Source of the DNA: Candidatus Levyibacteriota bacterium | Lineage (GTDB): Bacteria; Patescibacteriota; Microgenomatia; Levybacterales; UBA12049 | Length of the DNA: 64,000 nt | NCBI GenBank assembly: GCA_016186645.1 | Contig: JACPLF010000007.1 | Span: 9,151-73,150, forward strand | Reading direction: 5' to 3' | Shown: positions 7,603-64,000 of the stretch, in pieces | How positions within the stretch are numbered: position 1 is the stretch's first letter | Layout: each line of letters begins with the position of its first letter | Notes under the pieces: model-generated | The model's database searches: none | Seen by the model: only the letters and a program-made list of their open reading frames with translations | What the model was told of the DNA's origin: nothing | Translations under genes and position numbers: made by a program

Positions 7603-8085
7603 TTATACTCCCTTTTTTAATGTTTCGTCAATGGTTTTTTTGATCGTGTCCCAATTAAATCCTTTCGAAGCCAAAAACCGACCTAGCTTTTGATAAATCT
7701 CTTCTTTTGATAAATCCTTAAATCGTTCAATCCTCTCTTGAGCAAGTTTCTTTGCCTGATCCAAATCGCTGTTAATTGTTAATTGTAAATTGTTAATTGT
7801 TTCAAGATCGATTCCTTTTTGTTTTAATTCCATTTTTATCAAACGCAAACTTCGCGGCTTAAACCTTATCCTGCTTTCCACAAACCACTTTGCAAACTTC
7901 TCATCATTGATAAATTTCTTCTCCTTGAGTTTTTGGATAATTTCGTCAATAACTTTTGAGTTTTGAGTTGTATTTTTTACTTTTGAGTTTTGAATTTTGA
8001 ATTTCAAACGGTCTCTCACTTCCTTCTCCGACCGCGGCCGATACGACAAAAACCGAAGCGCTAGGTTATAAAACTTATCTTCCAT
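7603..8085 (-). CDS. recX: recombination regulator RecX
   Basis: RecX three-helix-repeat architecture (LRFLSYRPRSEKEV...). Located downstream of recA. Confidence 0.7.
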   Translation of the reverse strand: MEDKFYNLALRFLSYRPRSEKEVRDRLKFKIQNSKVKNTTQNSKVIDEIIQKLKEKKFINDEKFAKWFVESRIRFKPRSLRLIKMELKQKGIDLETINNLQLTINSDLDQAKKLAQERIERFKDLSKEEIYQKLGRFLASKGFNWDTIKKTIDETLKKGV

Positions 8086-22456: not shown

Positions 22457-22588
22457 AGTGTTTTGACTGTAGAAAATAGAAGCTTGAAAGTAGGTATTGA
22501 AGGTAGAAGTTGGAAGATAAAAAACAGTCTCTCTACCCTCTATCTTCGATCTTCAAATTTCTATCTTCCACTGTCTATTTTCTATCGT

Positions 22589-25384: not shown

Positions 25385-25603
25385 CTATTTATAACGGTAC
25401 ACTATTCTTCCTTTCGTCTTGTCATACGGAGTCATTTCGACTCTGACCTTATCTCCGGGCAAGATTTTTATAAAATTCATTCTCATTTTGCCCGATAAGT
25501 GACAAAGAATTATAGCTCCATTTGTCAGTTCTACTCTAAAAAGGGTATTGGGTAAAGACTCCTTAACAACGCCTTCTATCTCAAAAGATCCCTGGTGTGC
25601 CAT
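25385..25603 (-). CDS. infA: translation initiation factor IF-1
   Basis: S1-like fold: [20 protein letters not shown]... Confidence 0.95.
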
Positions 25604-25692
25604 AGTAAATTTAAAATAGTAAATTGCAAAAATACATTTAAAATTTCAAATGTGTATTTACTATTTACAATTTTCTATTTGCTATTGAAGCC
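25604..25692. repeat. AT-rich intergenic repeat, copy C (map/infA spacer)
   Basis: Near-identical to copy B. Confidence 0.85.
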
Positions 25693-28179: not shown

Positions 28180-28221
28180 AGTAAATTTAAAATAGTAAAC
28201 TTCAAATACACATTTAAGATT
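28180..28221. repeat. AT-rich intergenic repeat, partial copy D
   Basis: CATAGTAAATTTAAAATAGTAAAC... left flank of the four-helix-bundle gene. Confidence 0.6.
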
Positions 28222-28608
28222 TTAAATAGATCTTTTTCCTTTAATTGTTAGTATACTTGACGCAAAGATATTTGAATACTCATCAAGTTCTTTTAAGAAT
28301 GGATCCGCTTTTTCTTTAGATGTGCGTTTGGAATCTCTTAGAAGCGCTACCCATACTTTACTTTCGTTGGAAGATTTTAAGCAATATTGAATAAATATTA
28401 AAAACTCTTTTTTAGAACTTGCCGATTGACCTTCAATGTAGTTGCCCAAGATGCTTGTACCGCTTCTTAAAAGTTGATCGCCAATAATATATGATACACG
28501 ATCTTTCGGAAGATTATCAATAAATTCTATTAATCTCAAAATAAAACTATAAAGCTTTCTTTTAAATTCCTCTTTATTAAATTGTTTTTTTATATTTTCT
28601 GTTTGCAT
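28222..28608 (-). CDS. four-helix-bundle protein (TIGR02436 / 23S-rRNA-intervening-sequence-protein family)
   Basis: QLLRSGTSILGNYIEG..KKEFLIFIQYCLKSSNESKVW matches the family consensus. Inserted between secY and adk and flanked by AT-rich repeat copies. Confidence 0.65.
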   Translation of the reverse strand: MQTENIKKQFNKEEFKRKLYSFILRLIEFIDNLPKDRVSYIIGDQLLRSGTSILGNYIEGQSASSKKEFLIFIQYCLKSSNESKVWVALLRDSKRTSKEKADPFLKELDEYSNIFASSILTIKGKRSI

Positions 28609-28646
28609 TTTAAAATGTATTTTTACAATTTACTATTTACAATTTA
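28609..28646. repeat. AT-rich intergenic repeat, partial copy E
   Basis: ...TTTTACAATTTACTATTTACAATTTACTATT right flank of the four-helix-bundle gene. Confidence 0.6.
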
Positions 28647-29936: not shown

Positions 29937-30036
29937 AGTAGTGATTTAAAATTTTAAATAGTAAATTGCAAACTTACATTGCAAATTTGAAATTTCAAAT
30001 GTGTATTTACTATTTTAAATTTACTATTTACAATTC
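29937..30036. repeat. AT-rich intergenic repeat, copy F (secY/rplO spacer, abuts rplO stop)
   Basis: Full-length copy including the internal inverted repeat. Confidence 0.8.
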
Positions 30037-30468
30037 TACTTTCCCTCCGGCTTTCAAAATTTTCTTTGCCGCTCCTTTTGACACGGGTAATTTAACTGTT
30101 AAAGCAATATTAAGGTTTCCATCTCCCAAAATTTTGATTCCGTTTTTCTTGGCATAATCGGGATTCACAATTTTATTGTCAATAAGTGATCCTAGATCAA
30201 CTACCGTGCCTTTTTTTAATAAATTCAAAACCTTTACATTTACAATAATTGGACCTTTCCTGAAAGACTTATTCTTGCCTTTTCCTCTCATAAACGGAAG
30301 CCTTTTAATAAGAGTTAGTGCTCCGCCTTCAAAAGTCAAAGGAATATTTCCTTTTGCTTTTTGTCCTTTTGTTCCTCGTCCACTTGTTTTTCCGCGCCCT
30401 GATCCATGGCCCTGACCTAGTCTTTTTTGTCTTGATTCCGTGATTTTTTTCAAAGATGAAAGTTTCAT
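30028..30468 (-). CDS. rplO: 50S ribosomal protein L15
   Basis: GRGTKGQKAKGN..FEGG. Confidence 0.95.
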   Translation of the reverse strand: MKLSSLKKITESRQKRLGQGHGSGRGKTSGRGTKGQKAKGNIPLTFEGGALTLIKRLPFMRGKGKNKSFRKGPIIVNVKVLNLLKKGTVVDLGSLIDNKIVNPDYAKKNGIKILGDGNLNIALTVKLPVSKGAAKKILKAGGKVEL

Positions 30469-31419: not shown

Positions 31420-31499
31420 ATTAATTTTAAATATTAAATATCAAATTGTAAAAATACATTTAAAATTTAAAATGTGTATTTACTATTTACAATTTACTA
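31420..31499. repeat. AT-rich intergenic repeat, copy G (rplR/rplF spacer)
   Basis: Full-length copy. Confidence 0.8.
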
Positions 31500-32051
31500 T
31501 CATTTCGCTCCTAATGCTTTTGCTGCTTTTCCCACTTTTCTTCTTATTTTTTCATCCTTGTATTTTATACCTTTCCCTTTATATGGCTCGGGCGGTCTTA
31601 TTGCTCTTATTCTGGATGCCATATTTCCAACCATATCTTTATCGCTACCCAGAACTGTAATTACATTTTCATCAACCGTGAACGTTAACCCATCTGGAGC
31701 CGTAATCTTTACAGGATGAGAAAAACCAACAGAGAGAGTCAAATCCCGGCCTGCTGCTTGAACTCTGTATCCAACCCCTGAAAGTTCGAGCTTTTTCTCA
31801 AAACCCGTTAAAACACCGGTAACCATATTTGAAATCATAGCTCTTGTTAATCCCAAAGATGGCTTTAATCCTTCATTATTCTTGTCTTTCAAAGAAACTA
31901 CCAAACGCCCCTCTACTGATTTTACGTCAATTCCTTGTGGGAGCTTGAAAGAAAGATTTCCTTTAGGTCCGCTAATTTTAACAATATCCTGATCAAAAGC
32001 AACGTTCACGCCTTCTTTGATCATAACTGGTTTTTTTGCAAGTTTAGACAT
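31500..32051 (-). CDS. rplF: 50S ribosomal protein L6
   Basis: L6 two-domain signature. Confidence 0.95.
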   Translation of the reverse strand: MSKLAKKPVMIKEGVNVAFDQDIVKISGPKGNLSFKLPQGIDVKSVEGRLVVSLKDKNNEGLKPSLGLTRAMISNMVTGVLTGFEKKLELSGVGYRVQAAGRDLTLSVGFSHPVKITAPDGLTFTVDENVITVLGSDKDMVGNMASRIRAIRPPEPYKGKGIKYKDEKIRRKVGKAAKALGAK

Positions 32052-32121
32052 ACATTCGCTCCTTTGCGTCGCTCAAATTAAAAATTAAAAATGAAAAATT
32101 CAAAATTAACTTTTAACTTTT

Positions 32122-32163
32122 CCCGCCCGACTTCGCCTGCGAGCGAACTCGCTGGCGGGCGGG
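32122..32163. promoter_or_regulatory. GC-rich stem-loop between rpsH and rplF
   Basis: CCCGCCCG..GCGAG-CGAA-CTCGC..CGGGCGGG flanked by AACTTTTAAC repeats. Confidence 0.4.
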
Positions 32164-32179
32164 CACTTTGAACTTTTAA

Positions 32180-36010: not shown

Positions 36011-36078
36011 ATTAATTCAGCGTTTAGTTAATGAGCGTCTAGCGTCTAGTTTCTAAACTGAACGCTAGTTGCTAAACG

Positions 36079-37490: not shown

Positions 37491-38315
37491 TTATTTTTGC
37501 TTGCCCCTCGAAGCGAAATCGTTGTGGGGTCCTTTCATAAAAGTATCTTCAATAACATCTACCGCATCTCTCATAAGTAAAATCAATTTGTTATCAATAA
37601 CTTTATAAGCATTGATCATGTTTGCAGTCAATATCTCTACTCCTTCGATATTTCTTGCAGCCCTGTAAACATTTTCTGCTTCTTTTGCCTTAGGCATTAC
37701 CAATAAAACTCTGGAAGCATTTTTTATTCCCAAATTTTCCAAAACTTGAGCCATTAATTGTGTTTTAGGTGTTATTTCTTCCAATCCTTTTACGATTTTT
37801 AGTTCGTTGTCTTTAAGCTTTGAGGAAAGTGCTGAGAAAAGCGCAAGGGTTTTCATTTTTTTTGAGAGACTGAGAGAAAAATCTCGGGGTCTTGGTCCAA
37901 AAGCAAGTCCTCCGCCGACAAAAATAGGAGCTCTTTTTGAGCCGTGGCGGGCGCGTCCTGTACCTTTTTGCTGCCAGACTTTTTTGGTTGTTTTATTTAC
38001 TTCTCCTCTGTCTTTTGTCTTGACTGTTCCCTGTCTTTGATTTGCCAAATAAACTCTGACCGCTTGGGCCATAAGAGAATCATTTATTTTTGCGCCAAAT
38101 ACTTCAGTCGGCAAACTAATGCTGCCTGATACTTTTCCTTTTGTGTCAAAAACAGAAGCGTTTAAACCTGCTCCCTTTGTTTTTGCCAAAACAGGAATTT
38201 TAGCTTCAATCTTAGCCTTTTTAGCTGATTTTTTTACAACAATTTTAGGAGCTTTAATATTCTTTTTCGCAACTTTTAATTTTGAACTTTTAACTTTTAA
38301 CTTTTTAGCTGGCAT
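37491..38315 (-). CDS. rplD: 50S ribosomal protein L4 with ~55-aa Lys/Ala-rich N-terminal extension
   Basis: L4 core (QKGTGRARHGS..). Unusual KAKK-rich N-terminus. Confidence 0.9.
   Translation of the reverse strand: MPAKKLKVKSSKLKVAKKNIKAPKIVVKKSAKKAKIEAKIPVLAKTKGAGLNASVFDTKGKVSGSISLPTEVFGAKINDSLMAQAVRVYLANQRQGTVKTKDRGEVNKTTKKVWQQKGTGRARHGSKRAPIFVGGGLAFGPRPRDFSLSLSKKMKTLALFSALSSKLKDNELKIVKGLEEITPKTQLMAQVLENLGIKNASRVLLVMPKAKEAENVYRAARNIEGVEILTANMINAYKVIDNKLILLMRDAVDVIEDTFMKGPHNDFASRGKQK
37504..37529. repeat. GC-rich palindromic motif CCCCTCGAAG-hairpin-GGGG (overlaps rplD 3-prime end)
   Basis: CCCCTCGAAGCGAAATCGTTGTGGGG. Confidence 0.6.
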
Positions 38316-44256: not shown

Positions 44257-45390
44257 TTAAGTCCTGCCTATCAATACAGTAATTGTCTGATCAAAATCTT
44301 GATTTTCCGAAATTGAAATACTTGGTAAAACTTTTTTTATTTCTATAAATGCTTTTTCTCTGGCATCGGCAGGAACATTTTTGGAAAAAACTACAGAAGA
44401 CTTTTCTGCAGGTGAAGTCTCTGAAACTGAGCTTTTAATATCTTGAAAGCCTATTGCTTGTAATTGTTGGCTGAGACTATTAAATATTTCCGAAGCTTGC
44501 GTACTTTGCACAATTTTTACTCTTATAACTTTAAGGTCAGTGGGTATTGCACTTGCTTGAATCTGAACTGAGGGGGCTGTGGTTGGGATAGCAACACTGT
44601 TATCAACAGCGCTTTTTATTTTTTTACTCGCAGGATGCGTTTGGGAAGCTCCCATGTTAAGATAAACAACCGCAAGAATAATTACAAGAGTAACAAATAC
44701 GCCGATCAATATATAAAGGCTTAGATTTTGCGGTTTCTTTTCTTTTTCCTTCTGTTCTATCTCTAAGCCCTGCGGAGAAGTTATCCTCTGTTGGTTTGTC
44801 AATAAGTTACCCGTTCTTAAGACTTCGGATCCTTCTAAAATAATTTGTATATTGTTTTGTGTTAATCCTGCCGCAAAATTTATGTTTGTCCCATACATAA
44901 AGCTAGGAATTACCGCTTCTATTGTAGATCCTTTATTGACAAATACGTCAGCAATTGTCATAACAAGATCTTTATTAACAGCAGCTATACGGTTTAATTT
45001 ATCTGTTTTAATAACTTTGGCGAGGACTTCTTCAAAGGGAACATCTTCCAAAAATGCCTGTATCTCTTCTTTATGCTCTTTATCTATATTTCCCGGTGCT
45101 TCTAAACTCACAGTCTGAACAGGAGGAGTCTGTTTTTCTACAATATCAACCATATCCTTTTCATAAATTATGTTATCCGACAGAACTAATGAAAGGCTGC
45201 TTGGAACTATTTTATTTATTTGGATAAAAGTCGCAATAAGCCTCCCGAATTGCTCTTTATTCACCACATCCAAATTGGCAACAATATCCGGGGTGAAATT
45301 AAATCTCGCAACGTTTGAAAGAGTATCTTGAAAGATACTAAATCCGTTTCTGTCTAGAAATAAAATGATAGGATGGTTTTTAGAAGACAT
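44257..45390 (-). CDS. type IV pilus assembly membrane protein (PilM/PilN-like cytoplasmic N-domain, one TM, C-terminal LytR_C-like domain), putative
   Basis: Bitopic topology. The C-terminal region resembles the LytR/CpsA/Psr C-terminal domain pattern. Context-based. Confidence 0.3.
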   Translation of the reverse strand: MSSKNHPIILFLDRNGFSIFQDTLSNVARFNFTPDIVANLDVVNKEQFGRLIATFIQINKIVPSSLSLVLSDNIIYEKDMVDIVEKQTPPVQTVSLEAPGNIDKEHKEEIQAFLEDVPFEEVLAKVIKTDKLNRIAAVNKDLVMTIADVFVNKGSTIEAVIPSFMYGTNINFAAGLTQNNIQIILEGSEVLRTGNLLTNQQRITSPQGLEIEQKEKEKKPQNLSLYILIGVFVTLVIILAVVYLNMGASQTHPASKKIKSAVDNSVAIPTTAPSVQIQASAIPTDLKVIRVKIVQSTQASEIFNSLSQQLQAIGFQDIKSSVSETSPAEKSSVVFSKNVPADAREKAFIEIKKVLPSISISENQDFDQTITVLIGRT

Positions 45391-45393
45391 GTT

Positions 45394-45822
45394 TCATAAT
45401 TCCTTCCAGTTTGAAAATGTATAATATCCGTTACTATAATTCATTTGCGCCTGAACAGTTCTTTTAAAATTTCCATTTTGCCCAACCGAGACAACAGTCT
45501 TTGGATTAGCTCCTGTTACTGTTATTACTGCTGTTCCTGTACCAACTGTTAATGTCTCCCCTGCATAATTAGGATCTCGCAACAATCTTAAGAGCGCATT
45601 CTCAACTCCGCTTTCTGCCGTATAATATGCCGATGTCCCCTCCTGAAGCTTACTTGCGGAAATAGAGTTGGCAATAATAATTATTATTGCTCCAGAAGTA
45701 ATTGTCAATGAAATCAATACAAAAAATAATAATGTTATTAACGCCTGCCCCTTTTGAAGATGAGAAATGAGAAATGAGAAATGAGAAATATCTAGTAATT
45801 TGTTTTTAAAATTATTTTTCAT
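45394..45822 (-). CDS. pilin-like protein with long repeat-encoded leader (atypical cleavage motif G/QALIT)
   Basis: Leader MKNNFKNKLLDISHFSFLISHLQKG then a hydrophobic helix. Thr not Glu at +5. Confidence 0.45.
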   Translation of the reverse strand: MKNNFKNKLLDISHFSFLISHLQKGQALITLLFFVLISLTITSGAIIIIIANSISASKLQEGTSAYYTAESGVENALLRLLRDPNYAGETLTVGTGTAVITVTGANPKTVVSVGQNGNFKRTVQAQMNYSNGYYTFSNWKEL

Positions 45823-45847
45823 TTTTCACCTTTCATTTTTCATTTTG
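45762..45847. repeat. heptanucleotide tandem repeat cassette: (GAGAAAT)x4 inside the pilin-like leader plus upstream (TTTTTCA)-like x4 arm
   Basis: Exact 4x GAGAAAT on plus (ATTTCTC on the coding strand, encoding ISHFSFLISH). Inverted arm tttttcatttttcacctttcatttttca spans the RBS/start. Confidence 0.85.
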
Positions 45848-46387
45848 TTACTGTCTTCTCAAAGAAATATTTGTTTGAAAATTCCTTACTTCCCGTCCTG
45901 AAATTCTCTCTGTTTTTGAAGTAACTGTAAAATTAATTCTTAATGTATTCTCTATTCCTCCTGCATTTCCCAGACGCTGTACTGAAAAAGCCGAGATACT
46001 AGTTCCATAGTTATTTAAATTATTTGTTCCGAAGTTATTAACAAGAATTAAATTATTATTTGCATCTATACTGTAAGCATAATTTATTCCATCAATAACT
46101 ATTTGAAAATTATCATTAGTATCTCCATTGGAAACAGGAATATTTATGCTTTGCGCCCTATGAATATCATATGCAAGTCTTGCAAGAATATAATTACCAT
46201 CCTGTTCAACGCTGGATGTTGCGTTGGATTCTGACTGAACATCAAGGGCTGAAACAAAAACTGAAGTTAATATTGTTAACAAAACAGAAAGAATAGACAT
46301 ATATAATAGCAGCTCAACTACCGTGACCCCAATTTGCGAATTTCTTAAATTGAAAATTGAAAATTGAAAATTTAAAATTTTTTTCAT
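45848..46387 (-). CDS. minor pilin / pseudopilin with long leader
   Basis: MKKILNFQFSIFNLRNSQIG/VTVVELLLYMSIL, Glu at +5. Confidence 0.55.
   Translation of the reverse strand: MKKILNFQFSIFNLRNSQIGVTVVELLLYMSILSVLLTILTSVFVSALDVQSESNATSSVEQDGNYILARLAYDIHRAQSINIPVSNGDTNDNFQIVIDGINYAYSIDANNNLILVNNFGTNNLNNYGTSISAFSVQRLGNAGGIENTLRINFTVTSKTERISGREVRNFQTNISLRRQ
46350..46377. repeat. heptanucleotide tandem repeat (TTGAAAA)x3+1 in the 179-aa pilin-like leader
   Basis: Coding strand AATTTTC x3 encodes FQFSIFN. Confidence 0.85.
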
Positions 46388-46395
46388 GGCGCTTG

Positions 46396-46459
46396 CCCCG
46401 TTGATGTGACACCGTGAGGCGAGGATGTAAACCTCGCGAACGGCGAACGCTCTACGGGG
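46396..46459. promoter_or_regulatory. GC-rich nested-hairpin element in the 5-prime UTR of the 179-aa pilin-like gene (overlaps stop of the 665-aa gene)
   Basis: CCCCGT...GCGAGG-ATGTAAA-CCTCGC...ACGGGG, ending 8 nt before the ATG. Confidence 0.45.
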
Positions 46460-48449
46460 AATAATTTCCTGTCATATCATAAAAAATCGGGGTTGATAAT
46501 GAATCTGTTGTTGAAAAAAAAGCTTTGTATTTAAAACATTGTCCAGGATTAATATTTATAGGAACTGCAAAATTAAATGTCTGCACACCGGAAGTTTCAC
46601 TTGTTGTAAAAAAAGTTGATGAGGTAGCATCAGGCCCTACAAAAGAAAAACTTGCCCCATCGCAATTTCCGGAAACTTCCGGGGAAACTGCAATTTGGAA
46701 TTGAAGATCTGTGGAATTCGGCCTGTTTATAGACGTATCAAATCTATTAAAAGCTGTTGAATATCCTGAATCAAATACCCCTGAAATAAAAGTGCCGGAA
46801 CTTGCATAGGCTCCCTCCGGCCCTCCCTCAATAATTTTAAATTCAGAAGATGCATCACCTGTCATGATATATGAATATGCATCACCATCAGCCTCCAATA
46901 CTGCTGCGATGCCGTTTATTTTTTTCCCGTCCTGATCGCCTAGATTTAGCCCTCCGCAGCGGACTGGACTGGATTCATTGGAAATGTCAATCACCTGATA
47001 CTCTTCTGAGCCCTCCGTACCTTCTTTACCCACAATAATAGCTCTGTTACTGGGTACAACTGTTACTGCTTTCGGATCCATGCCGTTGGCGTCATAACTG
47101 CCAATTACCGGACGGTTTCCTGTTTTTACAGATGTATCTACAATAAAAAATTCCGGAAGCGCGTCCTGTTTGCCCGTTACAAGATACACTCTTGTTCCCG
47201 TAGTATTGACAAATAAATCTTTCGCGTCTTTTCCGGTTAGGTCTGCCTGGCCGACAATTGTTAAGTTATTTGGATTACTTACGTCAACAATCTGTAACTC
47301 AATATTTGATCCCTTTATTGTCACATATGCATAGGAGCCAACAACTACAACCCGTGTTCCATCTCCCACGGTTACCCCATCCGGATCAAGAAGCGACCGA
47401 GAGCCGCTTTTACTTGAAAGGTCAAAGCTGTAAAGTTTTTTTTCAGTAATCATATAGCCAACATCACCCAAAACCCATACCTGGTCACCCTTTTTATTTG
47501 TTGGAGCATCAAAGAAGCCTACTTCCGAATACTTGTTATTTGCGTCTTTAGTCCTAAGATCAATAATGACGACTTCCTTATGGGGATCGTCGGTTGCGAT
47601 ATAAGCATAATCTGTTTCTCCAAATACGCCATTTGTTTTATATCCGTCAAATGTTCCGTCAATTGATGGAACCGGAGGATTTGTATTGCTAATTGCAACA
47701 TTAGCAAAAGATACTCCTGATGAATTATCGCCAGTACCAACAAAGGTTTTGCCTTCAATGGCTGTTATCGCATCCGCAACGCCCTGCTTTGGCAAATCAA
47801 GGCTTGCGACAATAAATTGTCCTGGCTTACACCAATCCCCATTTCCTCCGGCTCCCAATGTGACTTCTCCGCCATTTGTATTGGTAACAACTGTACCGGA
47901 TTTTGTTCCTGTCTCAAAATCCGCAACTGTAGTTTGGGTAAAAGAATTATTATCCAGATATCTTGTAATAAATAAACTCGCACTAACTGTAGATGCGTAT
48001 GGTTGTGTCCAGGAGATTTCAATATCTACTTTTTTACTTGATGGATCTACAGATCCACCACTTGTGACGATTGCCCCGCTGGATGCTCTCTGAACATCTT
48101 CTATGTCAACTCTTTGCGTAAATGAATTGATATTTGCAGATCCAGTTGCCAGAGTCCAGGTTGATCCAGATATCACAGGATGGAAAGTTCCATTAACTGC
48201 AAAACTGGTCCAGCCTTTTTCCCTGACACTTCTAACTGCATCTACAGTTTCGTTTAGCAAATAAACTGCTTGTATTCTCTGGGTTTGCTGAGCTTTACCC
48301 TCACGCGATGATACTAATCCTGTTAATAACGCAGGAAGTAAAATAGCAGCAAGTCCCATTGCCAAAACTATCTCAACAAGCGACTGCCCCCTCTCAAAAT
48401 GAGATATGAGAGATGAGAGATGAGAAATGTTTAATCCTTTATTTTTCAT
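46452..48449 (-). CDS. large pilin-like protein: prepilin N-terminus fused to ~600-aa extracellular domain (candidate tip adhesin)
   Basis: MKNKGLNISHLSSLISHFERGQ/SLVEIVLAMGL class III signal. Large Gly/Thr/Asp-rich domain with repeated beta-rich segments. Confidence 0.55.
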   Translation of the reverse strand: MKNKGLNISHLSSLISHFERGQSLVEIVLAMGLAAILLPALLTGLVSSREGKAQQTQRIQAVYLLNETVDAVRSVREKGWTSFAVNGTFHPVISGSTWTLATGSANINSFTQRVDIEDVQRASSGAIVTSGGSVDPSSKKVDIEISWTQPYASTVSASLFITRYLDNNSFTQTTVADFETGTKSGTVVTNTNGGEVTLGAGGNGDWCKPGQFIVASLDLPKQGVADAITAIEGKTFVGTGDNSSGVSFANVAISNTNPPVPSIDGTFDGYKTNGVFGETDYAYIATDDPHKEVVIIDLRTKDANNKYSEVGFFDAPTNKKGDQVWVLGDVGYMITEKKLYSFDLSSKSGSRSLLDPDGVTVGDGTRVVVVGSYAYVTIKGSNIELQIVDVSNPNNLTIVGQADLTGKDAKDLFVNTTGTRVYLVTGKQDALPEFFIVDTSVKTGNRPVIGSYDANGMDPKAVTVVPSNRAIIVGKEGTEGSEEYQVIDISNESSPVRCGGLNLGDQDGKKINGIAAVLEADGDAYSYIMTGDASSEFKIIEGGPEGAYASSGTFISGVFDSGYSTAFNRFDTSINRPNSTDLQFQIAVSPEVSGNCDGASFSFVGPDATSSTFFTTSETSGVQTFNFAVPININPGQCFKYKAFFSTTDSLSTPIFYDMTGNYSP

Positions 48450-48475
48450 TTTTCATTTCTAATTTTTCATTTTTA
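48401..48475. repeat. heptanucleotide repeat cassette (GAGANAT)x4 in the 665-aa pilin-like leader plus inverted (TTTTTCA)-like arm
   Basis: gagatat gagagat gagagat gagaaat, then tttttca tttttca tttctaa tttttca. Confidence 0.8.
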
Positions 48476-48991
48476 CAATGATTCCACCTGAGTTACCGTA
48501 CCATAAATATTTAGATAAATTCTTTGTAATTTAGAACTAGGATTATCTTGCAATTCTATAGTCAGAACTCCTGAAATTGTTCCGCTTAATTTGGAAAAAA
48601 TAACATCGAATCCGCTATTATTGAGTTGCATATTATTATCCAAATTTATTATGGAATTTCCGGAATCTTCCGGGGAATAAGTTGTTCCATGAAAAGTAAT
48701 ATATCGGTTTGAGTCAAAATGGATTCCGTATGAATCGTAAGATTCTCGTCCTTCCGTATCTCCGATCATTGATTTTAATTGCTGTTGTCTTAAATCTGAG
48801 ATCAATACATCCTGAGTTGAAGTTAAAGAAGCTGTTTGTTGAGAACGTATAAGATTTATTGTGATAAATCCCAATAGGGTCATGATTATTGACATTACAA
48901 TAATCATTTCAATCAGGGAAAAACCCTTCTGAAATGAGAAGTGAGAGATGAGAGTTGAAAGATTTCTAATTTTTGATTTCTCATTTCTCAT
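48473..48991 (-). CDS. minor pilin / pseudopilin with long leader
   Basis: MRNEKSKIRNLSTLISHFSFQKG/FSLIEMIIVMSII. Confidence 0.6.
   Translation of the reverse strand: MRNEKSKIRNLSTLISHFSFQKGFSLIEMIIVMSIIMTLLGFITINLIRSQQTASLTSTQDVLISDLRQQQLKSMIGDTEGRESYDSYGIHFDSNRYITFHGTTYSPEDSGNSIINLDNNMQLNNSGFDVIFSKLSGTISGVLTIELQDNPSSKLQRIYLNIYGTVTQVESL
48929..48991. repeat. heptanucleotide inverted-repeat cassette encoding the whole leader of the 172-aa pilin-like gene
   Basis: gaaatga gaagtga gagatga gagttga ... atttctc atttctc. Coding strand reads MRNEKSKIRNLSTLISHFSFQ. Confidence 0.8.
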
Positions 48992-48994
48992 TTT

Positions 48995-50050
48995 TTAACG
49001 TCCCCCAACTTGACCAATAAGTCCGTAAATAGGAGCAATAATAGCAAGCATCATTCCGCCAACCAATGCTCCGATTGCCACCAAAAGAATTGGCTCAAGA
49101 AGCGCAGTTGCAGTTTTTAATTTAGCTGACACTTGATAATCTAAGAACTCCGAAATTTCCGACATGGACTTATCTAATGATCCGCTTCTTTCTCCTGCTT
49201 CTGTGATTCTTATTATTATACTTGGGAAAACTTTTCTATTATTTTTGAACCCTTCCGAAAGTTTATGACCAGCTGCCACTGCTTCTTTTGCATGCCTTAC
49301 TCCCATTTCTACCTCATGACTCACAACAACATTTTCCGTTAATTCCAAAGCGCTTGTGATAGGTATACCTGCATTTAAAAGCAGATAAAAGTTTCTTGAA
49401 AATTTTGTCAGGTCAATGTCTTTTGCTAATCCTGATAAAATTGGGAGTTTAAAGATTAAATTTAACAGGAACTTCTTCTTTTTTTTATAAATAAAGAGTA
49501 TTAAGAAAGAAAATATTGCCAACCCCACAATTACAGGAATTGTTTGACTTAGTATTGCATTTGACATAAAAATTAATATTTGGGTAGGCAAAGGAAGATC
49601 AACCCGAAGTCTTGAAAAAACGCTGGAAATTTTTGGTACAACTACAATAAGAATCATAAGGAGGACTGCAAAAAATACAAAAACTATAAATAATGGGTAG
49701 ATTAAAGCAGATTTTATTTTATCTGAAAACTCCATGTCTTTTTTTAAATTTTCTTTTAAATCTTTCAGGGTAACATCCAGTGTTCCCGCCTCCTCCGATG
49801 CTTTAATAATACTTGTGGCAACTCTTGAGAAAACATTTGGAAATTTGGAAAAAGTAAAATATATATGTTTTCCCTGCGTTAAATCTTCTCTTAACACTTC
49901 TAGAAATTTTTTTTGATTTTTTCGGGAATCTTCCAACAATGCGTCAACTGCCTCCAAAAGCGGAATTCCGGCAGAAAGCATAGTTCCTAAATCACTTAAC
50001 ATGCCAAGCTTGTCGTTATTTGATAAAGTAATATTTTCTATTTTTGCCAT
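48995..50050 (-). CDS. pilC: type IV pilus platform protein PilC (GspF family, short form)
   Basis: GspF-domain topology with three TM segments and conserved cytoplasmic domain. Confidence 0.75.
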   Translation of the reverse strand: MAKIENITLSNNDKLGMLSDLGTMLSAGIPLLEAVDALLEDSRKNQKKFLEVLREDLTQGKHIYFTFSKFPNVFSRVATSIIKASEEAGTLDVTLKDLKENLKKDMEFSDKIKSALIYPLFIVFVFFAVLLMILIVVVPKISSVFSRLRVDLPLPTQILIFMSNAILSQTIPVIVGLAIFSFLILFIYKKKKKFLLNLIFKLPILSGLAKDIDLTKFSRNFYLLLNAGIPITSALELTENVVVSHEVEMGVRHAKEAVAAGHKLSEGFKNNRKVFPSIIIRITEAGERSGSLDKSMSEISEFLDYQVSAKLKTATALLEPILLVAIGALVGGMMLAIIAPIYGLIGQVGGR

Positions 50051-57192: not shown

Positions 57193-57258
57193 AATAATAA
57201 AATCTCAAAAATCAAAGGTCAAAACTCAAAATTATCGCAGACTTGAGATTTGCCTTGT

Positions 57259-57283
57259 CCCTCCGAAGCTTTAGCGAAGGAGG
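57259..57283. repeat. GC-rich palindromic motif (fusA upstream region)
   Basis: CCCTCCGAAGCTTTAGCGAAGGAGG. Confidence 0.5.
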
Positions 57284-57681
57284 AAGATTTAAGATTTGAG
57301 ATTACAGAAAAGTATACCATATTTTGTGTGTCTATTCTACTTCTTCCAATCTTTCACTATCAGCTTTTTGCCTTTTGGGGTAACTGTGAGTTTTTGTTTT
57401 GCCCGCCAGCCTAGCTTGCGGATTAATTCAATGGGAAAAGTAATCCCAAAACTTTTCCCTGCAATTTTTGTAAGACTCCTAATATTTCTCTTCTCCGTTT
57501 TTCGTACAGGCATATCTAAAATATTATATATGTAATTAGTTACGTAATCAATTACATAATTTTTTTATTAAATTTATTAAATCAAGCATTTAACTATTGA
57601 CTGCGACCGCTGTATATTATTAAATGGCTAAATGATTGAAAAATTGTAAAAAGGCACGAGGCTTGTGATATAATTACAAAC

Positions 57682-58327: not shown

Positions 58328-58558
58328 GTGTATAATAATAGTATGGATAAATATATTGCATCAGATCCCAATATTCTCGGGGGTAAACCTGTAATCAGAG
58401 GTACTAGAATACCTGTTGATCAAATTTTGTTTTTGTTAAAAGACGGTTTTACTGTTCAAGCAATCCATGAACTCTATCCCCATGTGAATGAGCAGACCAT
58501 AGAGGGAACGATTGATGAAACAGCTAAACTATTAAACAATGCCACGCAAACCTTATAG
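58328..58558 (+). CDS. DUF433 domain protein (putative antitoxin)
   Basis: ILGGKPVIRGTRIPV hallmark motif. Overlaps the downstream gene. Confidence 0.65.
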   Translation: MYNNSMDKYIASDPNILGGKPVIRGTRIPVDQILFLLKDGFTVQAIHELYPHVNEQTIEGTIDETAKLLNNATQTL

Positions 58559-58892
58559 GCACAAACTTCTCCTTGATGAAGGATTGTATTTAAAAAAAGC
58601 GCTCCCTCGTACAAATAGCCGCCATGACATAAAACATATCAAGCATGATTTAAATAAGGGCGGGGTAAGCGATAAAAAGGTTTATTCTATTGCCAACAAA
58701 AACAAGAGAATAATCGTTACTTATAATATTGATGATTTTAAAAAGCTGGCAAGAGAAAGTCCAAATTCTGGAGTTATTGGAATATCTCAAGGAATACCGC
58801 CAGATCAGCTTGATAAAAAATTAAGTGCACTGCTTAGTAAAAAAACTCCTAAATCTCTGTATGGCAAATATGCTCCGCTAAGCAAGGCTTAG
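58539..58892 (+). CDS. DUF5615 (Mut7-C/PIN-like) domain protein (putative toxin)
   Basis: LLLDEGL...IIVTYNIDDFKKL pattern of PIN-like DUF5615. 20-nt overlap with the DUF433 gene. Confidence 0.55.
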   Translation: MPRKPYRHKLLLDEGLYLKKALPRTNSRHDIKHIKHDLNKGGVSDKKVYSIANKNKRIIVTYNIDDFKKLARESPNSGVIGISQGIPPDQLDKKLSALLSKKTPKSLYGKYAPLSKA

Positions 58893-59569: not shown

Positions 59570-60043
59570 TTACCATTTAAAATGGCTGAATGCTCGATTC
59601 GCTTGGGCCATGCGAAGGACTGCGTCTCTTTTTTTGATTGCTTCGCCCTGCTCCGCAGAAGCATCCAATAACTCTGCTGCTAATTTTTCTTCAAAAACTT
59701 TATAATCTTTGTTCGATCGAGCGCGGGCCGCATCCGCAATCCATCTCATTGCCAGAGATGCTCTTCTTTCGGGTCTTACTTCAACCGGAATTTGATAGTT
59801 GGCTCCTCCGACTCTTTTTGCTTTTACTTCTTGTTTTGGTCCCACACTCTCAAGAGCTCTTTCAAAAATAGCTATCGGATCCATTTCTTTTTTCTTTATT
59901 AAATCAAATGCCGCGTATAAAACATTTTGAGCTACGGTTTTCTTGCCATCTACCATCAAATAGTTAATAAACTTAGCTATCTGCTTGTTTTTGTATATTA
60001 AATCTCCTTCAATTTCTCTTTTTGGTGCTTGTTTATGCCTCAT
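59570..60043 (-). CDS. rpsG: 30S ribosomal protein S7
   Basis: S7 signature. Confidence 0.95.
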   Translation of the reverse strand: MRHKQAPKREIEGDLIYKNKQIAKFINYLMVDGKKTVAQNVLYAAFDLIKKKEMDPIAIFERALESVGPKQEVKAKRVGGANYQIPVEVRPERRASLAMRWIADAARARSNKDYKVFEEKLAAELLDASAEQGEAIKKRDAVLRMAQANRAFSHFKW

Positions 60044-60080
60044 ATTTTTAAACTATATATTATATATAATATATAAGATA

Positions 60081-60548
60081 TTATTGAGCTGGTGCTGCTT
60101 CTTTCACTCCAGTTACTATTTTCGGCGCTCCCCCTCCCATTGCATTTCTCTTTGCTCCATATTTGCTTCTTGATCTTTTTCGTCCCTCAACTCCCAAAAG
60201 ATCAAATTTACCCCGAACTATATGGTATTTTACTCCAGGCAAATCTTTTACTCTTCCGCCTCTGACCAAAACTATTCCGTGCTCAGAAAGTGAATGCCCA
60301 ATGCCCATAATGTAAGCTGTGACTTCCATTTTGTTAGATAACTTAACACGGGCGACTTTTCTAAGAGCTGAGTTAGGTTTTTTTGGAGTCATTGTTTTAA
60401 CCAAAGTGACCACTCCTCTTTTCTGAGGTGAAACTGTTGACTTATATATCCTGTCTTTAGCATTAAAAATCCTTCTTAATGCTCCGGACCTGCTCTTTTT
60501 TGTCTTTCTTTTTCTTCCTCTTTTAGACAATTGCGATAAAGTCGGCAT
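60081..60548 (-). CDS. rpsL: 30S ribosomal protein S12 (with ~20-aa C-terminal Gly-rich extension)
   Basis: [22 protein letters not shown]. Confidence 0.95.
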
Positions 60549-60557
60549 ATTTTTAAA

Positions 60558-60640
60558 AATTAGAGATGAGAGGTTAGAAATGAGAGATATTTTTCATTTC
60601 TCATTTTTCATTTCTCATCTTGGTATTATATCTCATTTGC
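60558..60640. repeat. solo degenerate copy of the pilin-leader heptamer cassette between rpoC stop and rpsL start
   Basis: Minus strand ATGAGAAATGAAAAATGAGAAATGAAAAATATCTCTCATTTCTAACCTCTCATCTC resembles the 5-prime end of the 172-aa pilin-like gene but is stopped after 5 codons. Confidence 0.7.
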
Positions 60641-63600
60641 GGGTCTTCCCTCAACCGGAATAAGACGGCCGATGATAACGTTTTCCTTGAGGCCTATTAA
60701 GCTATCCACACGTCCTTCCAAGGCTGCTTCGGTCAAAACTTTTGTTGTTTCCTGAAAAGAAGATGCTGATAACCAAGAGTCAGAGTACAAAGCGGATTTT
60801 GTGATTCCAAGAATTGTTTGTCTGGCTGTTGCAGGCTCTCCGCCCTGAGACAATATCTCAGAATTAATATCCTGGAATCTGGTTTTTGTTATAAATGCTC
60901 CAGGGATTAAAGAAGTATCTCCGACTGTTTCAACAACTACTTTATCAGACATTTTTCTCAGAACTACTTCAAAATGCTTGTCATTAATAGCAATACCTTG
61001 AGATTCGTAAACTTTTTGAGCTTCCAAAATAACATATCTCTGAGCATCAGTGAGGCTTTTGACCTTGAGTATTTCTTTTGGATCTATATAACCTTGAGCC
61101 AATTGAGTTCCAGGCAAAATTTCCTGATCATCTGCTACATTAAGAGTTGCTGTCAAAGGAATGAAGAATTCCTGCTCGGAAGCTGGCTTCATCTTTGTGC
61201 TTTTTACTTTTATAAGATATCCGTCATCTGTGGTTTCTATTTTTACTTTACCCATAAATTCAGAAATTGGAGACACAGCTTTTGGAGTTCTCATTTCAAA
61301 AAGCTCTTCGACTCTAGGCAAACCCTGAGTAACGTCAGACATAACAACTCCTCCAAAGTGTCTGACTCTCATTGTTAACTGAGTACCAGGCTCTCCAATT
61401 GACTGAGCAGCAATTACTCCAACAGGAACTCCCTGTTCAACTTCTTTTCTTGTACTAAAATCCCAACCATAGCATTTTGCACAAATTCCATATTCCAATT
61501 CACAGGTAATAGCAGATCTAACAACTAGTTCGGTGATCTCTTCATCCACAATCTTTCTACTAAGTAAAACTGTTATTTCTTCGCCTTCTTTTGCAATTAC
61601 TTTCTTAGTTTTCTTGGAAGTTACATTGCCAACAAGCACTCTACCCAAAATTCGCTGTTGGAATGGAGTTACTCTATCTTTTTCATCTGCGACAATCATG
61701 ATTCCCTCTTTTGTTCCACAATCTTCACGTCTTATAATCACATCGTGAGAAGCATCAACCAAACGACGGGTAAGATAACCTGCGTTTGCGGTTTTCAAGG
61801 CTGAGTCCGTCAGACCTTTTCTTGATCCTCTTGCTGATGCAACGTATTCAAAGATTGATAAACCCTCTCTAAAGTTAGATTTAATTGGAAGCTCAACTAT
61901 TTTTCCAAGAGGATCCAAAATAAGTCCTTTCATAGCTGATAGCTGTTTTAATTGCTCTTTACCGGCTCTTGCTCCTTCAGAATCTATAATAAGCTTAATA
62001 ACGTTCGTAGATTTAAGATTATTCCAAGTCAAATCTGCAATTGTATCTGTTGCATTAAGCCAAATATCATTTGCTAAGCGTTTTCTCTCCTCATCAGTTA
62101 TCAGTCCTTTTTGGTAATCCTGCTCTATTTGAGCTACCTTTTTATCTGCTTCGTGAACATAATCTCTTCTTCCCTTGATCATTTCATTATCAAAAACTGA
62201 GACAGAGATTCCGGAAACTGTTGCGCCATAGAACCCGAGTTTTTTAATTGCGTCGATTAAGCTTTCTACTTCATCCGGCGTTCTTTTTGTAATGGCTTCA
62301 GTTACAATTGTTTTTATTCCGGATGCGCTAATGGACCTATTAATAAATTCGAAAGATGAAGGAAGTGCTTCATTTAATAAAATTCTGCCAACCGAAGTTT
62401 GCTGATTTTTATCTTCGACTCTAACTATAATTGGCTCTCTAAGTTTGATCTCCTTAATACTGTTTGCCAAAAGAGCATCTTGAATATCTTTGAATACAGG
62501 AAGCTCCTCGCGTCTTATCGCCTCATCTATAGAAGTTAGATAATAAATTCCAACAGCCATTTCTTTGTTTGGAAGCGTAATTGCTCCTCCGTCTGCGGGT
62601 TTTAACAAATTGTGTTTTGGCATCATAAGACCGATTGCTTCTTCTTGAGCTTTTTTGGACAATGGAATATGAACTGCCATCTGATCTCCATCAAAGTCAG
62701 CGTTATAGCCTGCACAAACACAAGGATGAAGTGCAATAGCAGATCCTTCAATAAGAATTGGATAGAAGGCTTGAATACCTAATTTGTGCAAAGTTGGAGC
62801 TCTGTTCAAGAGAACCGGGTGATTCTTTGTGATTTCTTCCAAAATATCGAACACTTCTGGTGGTCGTTTTTCAATAAATCTTTTCGCAGACTTAATGTTT
62901 GGAGCAAATCCCCTTATGATAACTTCTCTTAAAACGAAGGGCTTAAACATTTCCAAAGCCATTTCTTTTGGAAGACCGCATTGAGACAAGGTTAACTGAG
63001 GACCTACAACAATAACAGATCGTCCTGAATAATCGACTCTCTTACCCAAAAGGTTTTGTCTAAATCTTCCCTGTTTTCCTCTTAACATGTCTGACAATGA
63101 CCTTAAAGGAGAAGAGGTTACCTGACTTGATCTTTGAGCAATATCAATTAATGAATCAACAGCCTCCTGAAGCATTCTTCTTTCATTTTTAAGAATTATC
63201 TGTGGAGCACCCAAGCTCATTAAGTGTTTTAATCTGTTGTTTCTGTTGATAACTCTCCTATACAAATCATTAAGGTCTGAAGTTGCAAAACGTCCGCCTG
63301 ATAACTGAACCATTGGGCGTAAATCAGGTGGAATAACTGGAAGAACTGATAAAAGCATGAATGTTGGCAAAATCTCGGCCTTTCTAATTGATTCTATTAG
63401 TCTTAATCTTTTGATAAGTTTTAGATATTTCTGTCCTTTTGCTTTTTCTGTTTCTTTTCTAAGTAGAGCTATAAGTCCAGTTATATCTATTTTTTCTAAT
63501 AGCTCTAACAAGCCTTCTGCTCCGGTTCTAATTGTGAAAAAAACCGGAATATCATATTCTAAAATCTTAAAGTACTCATCTTCGGATAAAACTGCTCCGA

Positions 63601-64000
63601 CTTTTAGTCCCTTTAATAGTTTCAAAAGGGCTTCATAAATTTCATCCAGCTTTTTGCTTTCCAAATCTAATCTCTCAGCAATTGCAGTGAGTTTTTGTCT
63701 TTTTGTTAGATCCAGTTCCTGCATGATTATCTCTTTTTGTTCACCCTTGGGCTTAGTCGAAAGAGAATTTTTCTTTTTTTCAGAAACTTCTTCATTTATT
63801 TTCTTTTCTTCGAGGCTCAAGTCTTCTTTAAGCTGCTGTTTCTTCTTTTCTATATAGTCTGAAAAAGAATCCATCGCTTGCAATTTTTTCTCTTCATCAA
63901 TATTTACAACCAAATATGAAGCGTAGTATATTACAGACTCAAGGCTTTTTTGAGACATATCCAAAAGCAAAGACAAGGGAGAAGATGATCCCTTAAAAAA
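60626..64000 (-). CDS. rpoC: DNA-directed RNA polymerase subunit beta-prime (5-prime partial; N-terminus beyond window)
   Basis: NADFDGDQMAVH, trigger loop, open frame to the window edge. Confidence 0.95.
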   Translation of the reverse strand, partial: FFKGSSSPLSLLLDMSQKSLESVIYYASYLVVNIDEEKKLQAMDSFSDYIEKKKQQLKEDLSLEEKKINEEVSEKKKNSLSTKPKGEQKEIIMQELDLTKRQKLTAIAERLDLESKKLDEIYEALLKLLKGLKVGAVLSEDEYFKILEYDIPVFFTIRTGAEGLLELLEKIDITGLIALLRKETEKAKGQKYLKLIKRLRLIESIRKAEILPTFMLLSVLPVIPPDLRPMVQLSGGRFATSDLNDLYRRVINRNNRLKHLMSLGAPQIILKNERRMLQEAVDSLIDIAQRSSQVTSSPLRSLSDMLRGKQGRFRQNLLGKRVDYSGRSVIVVGPQLTLSQCGLPKEMALEMFKPFVLREVIIRGFAPNIKSAKRFIEKRPPEVFDILEEITKNHPVLLNRAPTLHKLGIQAFYPILIEGSAIALHPCVCAGYNADFDGDQMAVHIPLSKKAQEEAIGLMMPKHNLLKPADGGAITLPNKEMAVGIYYLTSIDEAIRREELPVFKDIQDALLANSIKEIKLREPIIVRVEDKNQQTSVGRILLNEALPSSFEFINRSISASGIKTIVTEAITKRTPDEVESLIDAIKKLGFYGATVSGISVSVFDNEMIKGRRDYVHEADKKVAQIEQDYQKGLITDEERKRLANDIWLNATDTIADLTWNNLKSTNVIKLIIDSEGARAGKEQLKQLSAMKGLILDPLGKIVELPIKSNFREGLSIFEYVASARGSRKGLTDSALKTANAGYLTRRLVDASHDVIIRREDCGTKEGIMIVADEKDRVTPFQQRILGRVLVGNVTSKKTKKVIAKEGEEITVLLSRKIVDEEITELVVRSAITCELEYGICAKCYGWDFSTRKEVEQGVPVGVIAAQSIGEPGTQLTMRVRHFGGVVMSDVTQGLPRVEELFEMRTPKAVSPISEFMGKVKIETTDDGYLIKVKSTKMKPASEQEFFIPLTATLNVADDQEILPGTQLAQGYIDPKEILKVKSLTDAQRYVILEAQKVYESQGIAINDKHFEVVLRKMSDKVVVETVGDTSLIPGAFITKTRFQDINSEILSQGGEPATARQTILGITKSALYSDSWLSASSFQETTKVLTEAALEGRVDSLIGLKENVIIGRLIPVEGRPANEI

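Follow-up and report, generated by a model that had tools for sequence, protein, structure and literature searches.

Introduction

Heptanucleotide repeats have, to our knowledge, been recognized in bacteria for decades as the commonest class of long simple sequence repeats (SSRs), and we know of no accepted mechanism or function for them. The long SSRs were reportedly treated by Mrazek and co-workers in 2007, and the short tandemly repeated repetitive (STRR) sequences of cyanobacteria are said to be heptanucleotide repeats as well. TAACTGA repeats of Beggiatoaceae, Cyanobacteria and Bacteroidetes were described as 169 direct sets and one inverted set (MacGregor 2015, PMC4679880). Here we examine E4, a heptamer-periodic palindrome between rpoC and rpsL of a Candidatus Levyibacteriota bacterium, within a 64,000-nt stretch of contig JACPLF010000007.1 (assembly GCA_016186645.1; hereafter the window). 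With moderate confidence we read E4 as a recombining palindromic cassette, akin to the intervening sequences (IVSs) of rRNA and transcribed as a 5'-terminal stem-loop, whose insertion is tolerated and does not serve gene-specific regulation.

Other small elements offer structural parallels. IVSs of 23S and 16S rRNA are excised by RNase III, and some carry an open reading frame (ORF) of the PF05635 / TIGR02436 family. Correia/NEMIS elements of Neisseria are co-transcribed and cut by RNase III, and Rickettsia palindromic elements (RPEs) are inserted in frame in genes. Stem-loops at the 5' terminus stabilize mRNAs, as in ompA of E. coli and in the aprE and ermC leaders of B. subtilis. ORFs in rRNA insertions are reported from the Candidate Phyla Radiation (CPR; PMC11270868), and the small palindromic dispersed repeats (REP/BIME, ERIC, Correia/NEMIS and RPEs) have been reviewed (PMC3184786).

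Results

A hairpin between rpoC and rpsL

On the minus strand, rpoC (60626..63976) is followed by a 77-nt spacer, rpsL, rpsG and, further on, fusA. The locus comprises:

60560..60620, minus strand: E4, a heptamer-periodic imperfect palindrome of about 4 + 4 heptamers (ATGARAA / TCTCATY), from folding, Tandem Repeats Finder (TRF), inverted repeats and alignment
60625..60654, minus strand: promoter-like site TTGAGG-18-TATAAT, with 10/12 consensus matches, conserved in relatives
60549..60563, minus strand: A/U-rich tail CTAATTTTTAAAAAT from the hairpin to the rpsL ATG, without a Shine-Dalgarno (SD) motif and resembling the 11-12-nt spacer of hairpin-free relatives
60081..60548, minus strand: rpsL (S12; PF00164), downstream of E4

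E4 is 61 nt long. Its 5' arm (60620-60595) begins with the units AGATGAG, AAATGAA, AAATGAG and AAATGAA, and its 3' arm (60589-60564) consists of TCTCATT, TCTAACC, TCTCATC and a final T; TRF reported period-7 arrays at 60560-60586 and 60589-60618, the latter with 4.3 copies. The 77-nt spacer folds with a dG of -17.6 kcal/mol (z = -3.7), and none of 200 shuffles was as stable. In the sense fold of E4, an outer 8-bp stem (60620-60613 with 60571-60564) and an inner 8-bp stem (60606-60599 with 60585-60578) lie around a 6x6 internal loop, and G-C accounts for just 4 of 19 base pairs. Fold and arrays together bear out the period-7 hairpin proposed in an initial annotation of this spacer. The minus-strand sequence quoted there (60618..60563) was exact, including the mini-ORF ATG AGA AAT GAA AAA TGA (MRNEK*); its extent of 60558-60640 contracts to 60560-60620 for the element proper. 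An Rfam 15 search of the spacer returned nothing at gathering score, only generic miRNA-precursor hairpins of 10-23 bits appearing at E <= 10, and an intrinsic terminator scan of both strands at 60000-61000 and 45300-49200 found no terminator-like site.

The arms of E4 belong to a sequence family, GAGAAAT/TCTCAT, with four copies in the window (E1-E4). The motif ATGAGAAATGA, allowing at most one mismatch, occurs 19 times against 3.7 expected, a five-fold excess, and 16 of these matches lie in four loci (45.76-45.84, 48.40-48.46, 48.93-48.99 and 60.59-60.62 kb). E4 aligns end to end with E2 and E3, located in the leaders of pilin-like genes (local scores of 30-33 vs 12-14 for the null; z ~6.9), and does not align with the other heptamer families of the window (z <= 1.4). 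The loops of E1-E4 are not conserved. Across ~1.39 Mb of relatives' loci the family was found essentially just in pilin leaders and in the rpsL spacer of one relative, L218. The alignment upholds the earlier suggestion that the spacer resembles the start of a pilin gene, and with the four-locus clustering it also upholds the idea of a repeat in its own right outside pilin genes. E4 is a genuine member of a dispersed class of heptamer-periodic palindromes and has its kin in the pilin leaders.

Insertion into the rpsL leader

TTGAGG-18-TATAAT ranks first among the promoter-like sites of the region and has a -10 box that shares bases with the rpoC stop codon (60626-60628); relatives keep an equivalent site, TTGAAG-18-TATAAT. 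The predicted transcription start (~60618-60619) coincides with the first base pairs of the E4 stem. The layout is thus a TATAAT box, 6 nt, the 61-nt hairpin, the 15-nt A/U-rich tail and the rpsL ATG, and this position downstream of a conserved promoter-like site agrees with the placement of E4 in the rpsL 5' leader by the initial annotation. The 15 nt past the hairpin are too short for a promoter and rpsL is essential, so the hairpin is presumably part of the rpsL mRNA.

In five relatives with S12 89-96% identical (L004, L216, L217, L219 and L220), just 11-12 nt separate the rpoC stop from the rpsL ATG; the stop lies inside the TATAAT box, which ends up ~10-11 nt before the ATG. By this comparison E4 appears as an insertion of ~66 nt between the conserved predicted promoter and the rpsL ATG, one that would turn a nearly leaderless mRNA into an mRNA starting with a stem-loop. 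L218 (S12 95%) has an orthologous hairpin in a 77-nt spacer, with ~77% identity and an equal unit count. The differences are mostly C/T changes in the 3' arm; of the 15 shared pairs, 2 show compensatory changes, 1 changed from G-C to G-U and none is broken. E4 is therefore hardly the degenerate copy it had been taken for: it is an intact hairpin with an orthologue of the same length. Among 80 relatives' loci the rpoC-rpsL spacer could be delimited in 65, of which ~8-11, from more distant relatives, hold heptamer hairpins of differing sequence. Architecture at the rpsL site has therefore been kept while sequence turned over. At the rpsL site, the window, L218 and L221 have the left junction of their hairpins, CAAG[A/T]T, in common, and on this evidence the three may descend from one old insertion there; a direction from pilin genes to rpsL finds no support.

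Copies in pilin leaders

The other members of the GAGAAAT family lie in the type IV pilus operon:

48930..48993, minus strand: E3, contained entirely in codons 1-23 of the gene for the 172-aa minor pseudopilin (48473..48991), from alignment and folding
48397..48475, minus strand: E2, across the start and leader codons of the 665-aa pilin-like gene (46452..48449), from alignment and folding
45757..45843, minus strand: E1, across the start and leader codons of the 142-aa pilin-like gene (45394..45822), from alignment and folding

The 172-aa protein has a prepilin signature (QKG/FSLIEM, the slash marking cleavage; TIGR02532 from residue 21; PF07963), and its cleaved leader reads MRNEKSKIRNLSTLISHFSFQKG/FSLIEM. 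The 665-aa protein has the prepilin-type motif ERG/QSLVEI, and the 142-aa protein QKG/QALIT, without Glu at +5. We surveyed 120 homologues of the 172-aa pseudopilin, and the cleavage motif could be located in 108. About 80 of these 108 have a leader of 4-7 aa, typically six residues (MRTQRG/FTLVEL), and a minority have expanded leaders readable as heptamer arrays, of the type SSLISHFS or LIIHHLSFII. DNA of three other species likewise had hairpins of GAGAAAT or other families in pilin leaders. The usual leader of orthologues is 6 aa long, so the pilin hairpins are best regarded as insertions into a leader that is cleaved off; by the predicted cleavage sites, the elements entered a region whose peptide prepilin peptidase removes. 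The short leaders of most homologues favour the same reading of the pilin copies.

Movement between sites

In L221-L223 (S12 94%), the site upstream of rpsL holds a different cassette, near-identical to window positions 32052-32179 upstream of rplF, the match including the AAAGGAGCGA SD region. The window hairpin in the rpoA-rplQ spacer (22457-22588) is 84% identical to the rpsL-rpsG spacer of L218, and the hairpin upstream of rplV (36011-36078) matches, in inverted orientation, the L221 rpsL-rpsG spacer. Cassettes recur whole at sites that are unrelated, and families therefore move between them. The sequence families also grade into each other. In another Levybacteria genome, L210, near-identical cassettes of ~110 nt at 10519-10640 and 13127-13250 lie in the leaders of pilin-like genes of 665 and 149 aa; their heptamer family is AATTCAA / CTTTTCA, and their likeness implies an apparent gene conversion or duplication between paralogous leaders. 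The rplF, rpoA-rplQ and L210 cases fit the recombining or mobile module that the initial annotation had envisaged, and the comparisons partly show that cassettes may be copied or converted between unrelated sites in either orientation.

Heptamer hairpins throughout the window

At one fixed stringency the window held 12 arrays of period 7 and none of periods 4-6 or 8-12; a first-order Markov simulation expects 0.07 period-7 arrays. Autocorrelation peaked at lags 7, 14 and 21 in intergenic DNA and at lag 3 alone in coding DNA. A strict detector of paired arrays found no pairs in the window because the arms are too degenerate; the hairpins were therefore catalogued by folding every spacer. About 17 heptamer hairpins were found, in each of which a short loop separates two arms, inverted to one another, of ~3-5 units of seven nucleotides. 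Genes with such a hairpin upstream are rplQ, rpsM, rpmJ, infA, adk, secY, rplR, rplF, rplV, a DsbD-like gene, fusA, rpsG and rpsL; four pilin-like leaders contain one too. Most hairpins directly precede start codons that have no SD motif, their 3' arms ending 0-16 nt before the ATG; an SD was absent from 13 of 14 hairpin-preceded genes and present in 28 of 71 others. By sequence they form the AAATAGT/ACTATTT family of the spc/alpha operon, whose loop is conserved across five to seven copies, the four GAGAAAT/TCTCAT copies and several single hairpins. E4 is consequently not the solo copy first described, with ~17 such hairpins of several families in the same 64 kb, one of them in the adjacent rpsL-rpsG spacer and another upstream of fusA. 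The catalogue includes:

25088-25182, minus strand: AAATAGT/ACTATTT hairpin upstream of rpsM, from folding and family comparison
25300-25392, minus strand: AAATAGT/ACTATTT hairpin upstream of rpmJ, from folding and family comparison
25600-25690, minus strand: AAATAGT/ACTATTT hairpin upstream of infA, from folding and family comparison
29940-30042, minus strand: AAATAGT-family hairpin upstream of secY, from folding and family comparison
31420-31502, minus strand: AAATAGT-family hairpin upstream of rplR, from folding and family comparison
32052..32179, minus strand: heptamer hairpin and SD cassette upstream of rplF, with a nested 42-nt GC-rich hairpin
22457..22588, minus strand: heptamer hairpin in the rpoA-rplQ spacer, from folding
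57193..57305, minus strand: heptamer hairpin upstream of fusA (units AAATCTC / GAGATTT), enclosing a GC-rich hairpin
60044..60080, minus strand: short period-7 palindrome of TATATAT units filling the rpsL-rpsG spacer, from TRF and folding

The sole periodic hairpin in the window with a unit length other than 7 lies upstream of rpsI (21518-21584, minus strand) and has period-8 arms of the TTGTTCGA / ATTGCTCA type. Short GC-rich hairpins occur inside or beside A/T-rich heptamer hairpins at 32120-32165 (minus strand), 57240-57275 and 46388-46451. The first of these settings includes a 42-nt CCCGCCCGCC...GGGCGGG insert in the window rplF cassette, missing from the otherwise identical L221 cassette; the nested hairpins may be a second small repeat family. 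In-frame heptamer arrays were seen in recX (7603..8085; at 7769-7802 and 7974-8008, forming RecX linkers), at 38274-38308 as a Lys-rich N-terminal extension of ribosomal protein L4 (gene 37491..38315), and at 46343-46382 as the fourth pilin-like leader (gene 45848..46387). We found no polymorphism in unit number: 3 independent assemblies agree exactly in the spacer and 6 in the pilin region, a comparison of consensus assemblies in which rare variants would be missed.

Strand asymmetry of folding

All six GAGAAAT-family hairpins examined, four from the window and two from other species, fold far better antisense to their genes. E4 gave -27.6 kcal/mol in the antisense and -16.9 kcal/mol in the sense strand, which has 5 A.C mismatches, and another member gave -29.7 vs -10.3 kcal/mol. 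Over the six, 41 A.C mismatches in the sense strand (G.U in the antisense) compare with about 5 sense G.U pairs. The rpsL-site hairpins of L218 and L221 show the opposite bias (sense -20.3 kcal/mol in L218; sense -21.4 vs -7.4 kcal/mol in L221), and relatives' hairpins have no consistent strand preference. A universal functional strand was rejected, the antisense bias failing for orthologous and other rpsL-site hairpins. The asymmetry could possibly stem from selection for weak, A-rich translation starts in pilin leaders, later copied to E4, from a function of the other strand, or from history alone.

A four-helix-bundle gene between hairpin arms

One member of the AAATAGT family is interrupted by a gene:

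28180..28646, minus strand: split AAATAGT-family hairpin between secY and adk, with its 5' arm at 28646..28609 and its 3' arm at 28221..28180

The arms form a duplex of -26.3 kcal/mol, compared with -9.7 for shuffles. The enclosed gene (28222..28608, 128 aa) encodes a four-helix-bundle / 23S-rRNA-intervening-sequence protein (PF05635, TIGR02436; nearest structure 2RLD). We also sampled 15 plasmid genes annotated as four helix bundle protein, from Cyanobacteriota, Bacteroidota, Bacillota, Spirochaetota and Chloroflexota. Inverted heptamer arrays abut the gene in all 15, and arrays of periods 5, 6, 8 and 9 were absent there. In 50-kb controls from Bernardetia and Treponema the sole period-7 arrays were those flanking the four-helix-bundle gene. 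The sampled genes lie between co-transcribed genes, such as hsdS/hsdR, drmD/mmeI and cas2/cas1. With the window included, inverted heptamer arrays bracket four-helix-bundle genes in six phyla, and from this shared architecture the gene-less hairpins are therefore best read as putative ORF-less forms of an IVS-like stem-loop element. Multicopy four-helix-bundle genes of Nostoc flagelliforme lie inside larger segmental duplications, and their cassette boundaries are hence uninformative. On two Nostoc flagelliforme plasmids (L228 and L241, ~455-480 and 985-1000) the four-helix-bundle cassette has on both sides a direct repeat of ~12 nt, (T/A)TGGAGTTGGGT, a possible target-site duplication. In the limited literature that could be searched we found no CPR-specific description and no link between four-helix-bundle genes and heptamers, which is no proof of novelty.

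A metagenome scan for (TCTCATY)3 matched at least 120 contigs of many unrelated organisms (GC 0.31-0.65), none of those listed lying in a pilin leader; the heptamer is therefore not lineage-specific. Among the matches listed, a four-helix-bundle gene lay beside the TCTCAT array in 3 of the at least 120 contigs, one of them arranged as (TAATGAG)3(GAATGAG)4 - ORF - (TCTCATT)3. The metagenome TCTCAT hairpins have a handedness: in 33 cases the purine-rich ATGAGA-type arm came 5' of its TCTCAT partner and in 1 case 3' of it, a pattern for which the choice of strand cannot account.

Setting and other features of the window

The window's ribosomal-protein operons (21-41 kb) and its type IV pilus operon (43.7-51.7 kb; pilB, pilC, four pilin-like genes and the major pilin) are both on the minus strand. 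The closest species representative is MFPH01000029, with S12 89% identical, and NCBI names the window's pseudopilin as one of Levybacteria (CPR/Microgenomates). An extended -10 box, TGnTATAAT, lies 6-7 nt before the start codon of many genes without an SD, often the first in operons (e.g. upstream of 331, 8085 on the minus strand, 10642, 12103, 57682 and 58328). Such spacing is a signature of leaderless mRNAs and suggests that they are widespread in this CPR genome. The intergenic region 5345-5772 (minus strand) is a highly structured 470-nt region with a minimum free energy of -144.6 kcal/mol. Its match to bacterial RNase P RNA class A reached only 36 bits (E = 1.3e-9; gathering score 100), and it probably represents a divergent RNase P RNA of the CPR, one that would be overlooked by standard annotation. 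In the str-operon region, two small overlapping ORFs at 58328-58892 (plus strand) lie between a cyclophilin gene and a 181-aa ORF; by eye only, the first looks like a DUF433-type antitoxin and the second like a PIN-like toxin. A Pfam run on the 181-aa ORF gave no match.

Discussion

The reading we favour would run as follows. The cassettes would be non-autonomous repeats, copied or converted among unrelated sites in either orientation, and would evolve fast by transitions while retaining arm complementarity and unit number. In this genome and its relatives they occupy tiny spacers upstream of starts in ribosomal-protein, str and pilus operons, and cleavable prepilin leaders. E4 itself would be transcribed, because rpsL must be expressed through it, and would form the 5'-terminal stem-loop of the rpsL-rpsG mRNA. 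One outcome might be removal of the stem-loop by an RNase specific for double strands, namely RNase III as in rRNA IVSs, which would restore a short A/U-rich leader; the other, that E4 acts as a generic 5' stem-loop affecting mRNA stability and ribosome access. Either would take place in an organism that encodes RNase Y and probably relies heavily on SD-less and leaderless initiation.

Several points weigh against this reading. We infer from the DNA sequence where transcription starts, that the mRNA contains the hairpin and how it might be processed. The weaker sense fold of E4, with its 6x6 internal loop, is unlike what selection for a stem in the sense RNA would predict. Pfam scans of 40 window proteins found RecA, RecX, RmuC, a UvrD/PD-(D/E)XK helicase-nuclease and RNase Y, and no transposase. 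Nor did we find a clear target-site duplication or terminal-repeat signature; comparison of filled with empty rpsL sites gave TATAAT upstream and TCTAAT downstream as a weak candidate duplication. The presence and absence of hairpins among relatives could reflect either gain or repeated loss. Finally, most TCTCAT arrays stand without a four-helix-bundle gene, so the solo hairpins are linked to it by architecture only.

The simplest alternative is chance: E4 and the pilin hairpins might have arisen separately by slippage of a common A/T-rich heptamer, with no shared history. The initial annotation had anticipated this objection, and part of it stands. Heptamer arrays are common in the intergenic DNA of this genome and occur in coding sequence too (7769-8008 in recX; 38274-38308 at the L4 N-terminus), (TCTCATY)3 turns up in at least 120 metagenome contigs of unrelated origin, with no pilin context among those listed, and the loops of E1-E4 are not conserved. 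We nevertheless consider separate origins unlikely, as the alignment of E4 with E2 and E3 extends from end to end (z ~6.9) and has no parallel in other families, the GAGAAAT family is confined to four loci in 64 kb and, in the ~1.39 Mb from relatives, essentially to pilin leaders and the L218 rpsL spacer, and other families recur at different sites with >84% identity. The folding asymmetry raises another prospect, namely that the plus strand is the functional one and that GAGAAAT hairpins act as antisense RNA or single-stranded DNA, for example as terminators or processing sites of antisense transcripts that run across translation starts. The far better antisense folds of six hairpins (41 A.C against ~5 G.U in sense) would fit, as would the runs of 4-6 U that follow E1-E3 on the plus strand, but the rpsL-site hairpins of L218 and L221 fold better on the sense strand, relatives have no consistent preference, and the terminator scan was blank on both strands. 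The pilin asymmetry can equally be explained by selection for A-rich, weakly structured starts and Lys-rich leaders, and a plus-strand function seems to us rather improbable.

Function at the rpsL site itself might take other forms. Ribosomal-protein operons often have structured leaders, and the position of E4 between rpoC and rpsL, with a U5 run after the hairpin, would suit a dedicated regulator of the str operon, either an attenuator or terminator after rpoC or an autoregulatory ribosomal-protein leader. Such a regulator is very unlikely: the hairpin is missing in five close relatives with the same gene order, other relatives have unrelated cassettes in its place, elements of this kind stand before 13 or more unrelated genes, and E4, with its A/U-rich stem, has no Rfam match or terminator-like call. 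Translation of MRNEK* as a leaderless mini-ORF, opening the hairpin for rpsL translation, is a prospect we regard as remoter again. It would draw on the arrangement TATAAT-ACCAAG-ATG, in which the first ATG of the 5' arm lies 6 nt past TATAAT, as in at least 4 other window genes, and on TTG AAA GAT TAG at the equivalent position in L218; the ORF is, however, not conserved in L221 (TTA at that position), and MRNEK* follows automatically from the ATGARAA unit. Least credible of all, and extremely improbable in our judgement, is a phase-variation switch in which gain or loss of a 7-nt unit shifts the pilin reading frame and alters the length of the rpsL leader. Seven is not a multiple of 3, the arrays lie at the 5' ends of surface-structure genes, and the 5' arm gives ATGs in all three frames. 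Against this, arms have just 3-5 units, the spacer was identical in 3 assemblies and the pilin region in 6, the L218 orthologue keeps its unit number despite 23% divergence, and rpsL and other essential genes carry the same elements. A known RNA family, a terminator and phase variation were accordingly dropped after Rfam searches, terminator scans and assembly comparisons all proved negative.

A wider reading, which we hold to be doubtful at present, is that inverted heptamer hairpins are the termini, or solo ORF-less derivatives, of a widespread undescribed selfish cassette whose sole gene is the four-helix-bundle "23S-rRNA IVS protein" (Avd-like). This cassette would insert in operon spacers, mRNA leaders, rRNA helices and cleavable leader peptides, and would be tolerated through cutting of the stem by RNase III after transcription or removal by prepilin peptidase after translation. 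In Levybacteria, processing would also create near-leaderless 5' ends for SD-less internal cistrons (rpsL, infA, rpmJ, secY and fusA). If true, it would connect the STRR heptamers of cyanobacteria with the "four helix bundle protein" family and with the question of how rRNA intervening sequences arose; the idea that a single kind of element might comprise STRR-type arrays, four-helix-bundle genes and rRNA intervening sequences is testable. Heptamer repeats in this minimal CPR genome are organized as hairpins, apparently site-hopping cassettes inside essential operons, that seem able to become part of a protein where cleavage removes the added peptide. They explain why CPR gene calls show long "leaders" and odd extensions at the N-terminus, and they flag spots where annotation of gene starts and SD-based start prediction will fail.

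Comparison with known systems

E4 has the features of a tandem array and of a dispersed palindrome, and does not qualify as a terminator, a member of an Rfam family or a contingency locus; gene-specific regulation, termination and phase variation are unsupported for it. The window hairpins share with heptanucleotide SSRs, STRR sequences and TAACTGA repeats their tandem 7-nt units, in strong excess over other periods. Like TAACTGA-type repeats they are intergenic, end a few nucleotides from SD-less start codons and occur also in ribosomal-protein operons; unlike them, they are inverted pairs forming hairpins, with many heptamers in one genome. They depart from heptanucleotide SSRs in recurring whole as dispersed families, in entering coding leaders and in their CPR host, and from slippage-type SSRs in having no unit-number differences among assemblies or in the L218 orthologue.

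With small palindromic repeats (REP, ERIC, Correia and RPEs) the cassettes have in common that they are non-autonomous imperfect palindromes of 60-130 nt, multicopy, within transcription units, in either orientation and with presence/absence polymorphism between relatives. Their in-frame insertion into protein-coding sequence, in the pilin leaders, recalls RPEs. Unlike REP/MITE-type elements, their arms are 7-nt periodic, their families intergrade, and the 64-kb window encodes no RAYT or transposase. The stem of E4 begins ~0-2 nt from the predicted transcription start, as in the ompA, aprE and ermC stem-loops, and RNase Y is encoded in the window; those stem-loops are gene-specific, whereas the E4-type element would be generic and mobile. 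The parallel with rRNA IVSs is an extended terminal-inverted-repeat stem inserted in an essential transcribed region. For the class, though not for E4 itself, it extends to an IVS-protein ORF in the loop, at window positions 28180-28646 and in 15/15 plasmid genes. E4 and most copies differ from rRNA IVSs in being ORF-less and in lying in mRNA leaders, intercistronic spacers and leader-peptide codons.

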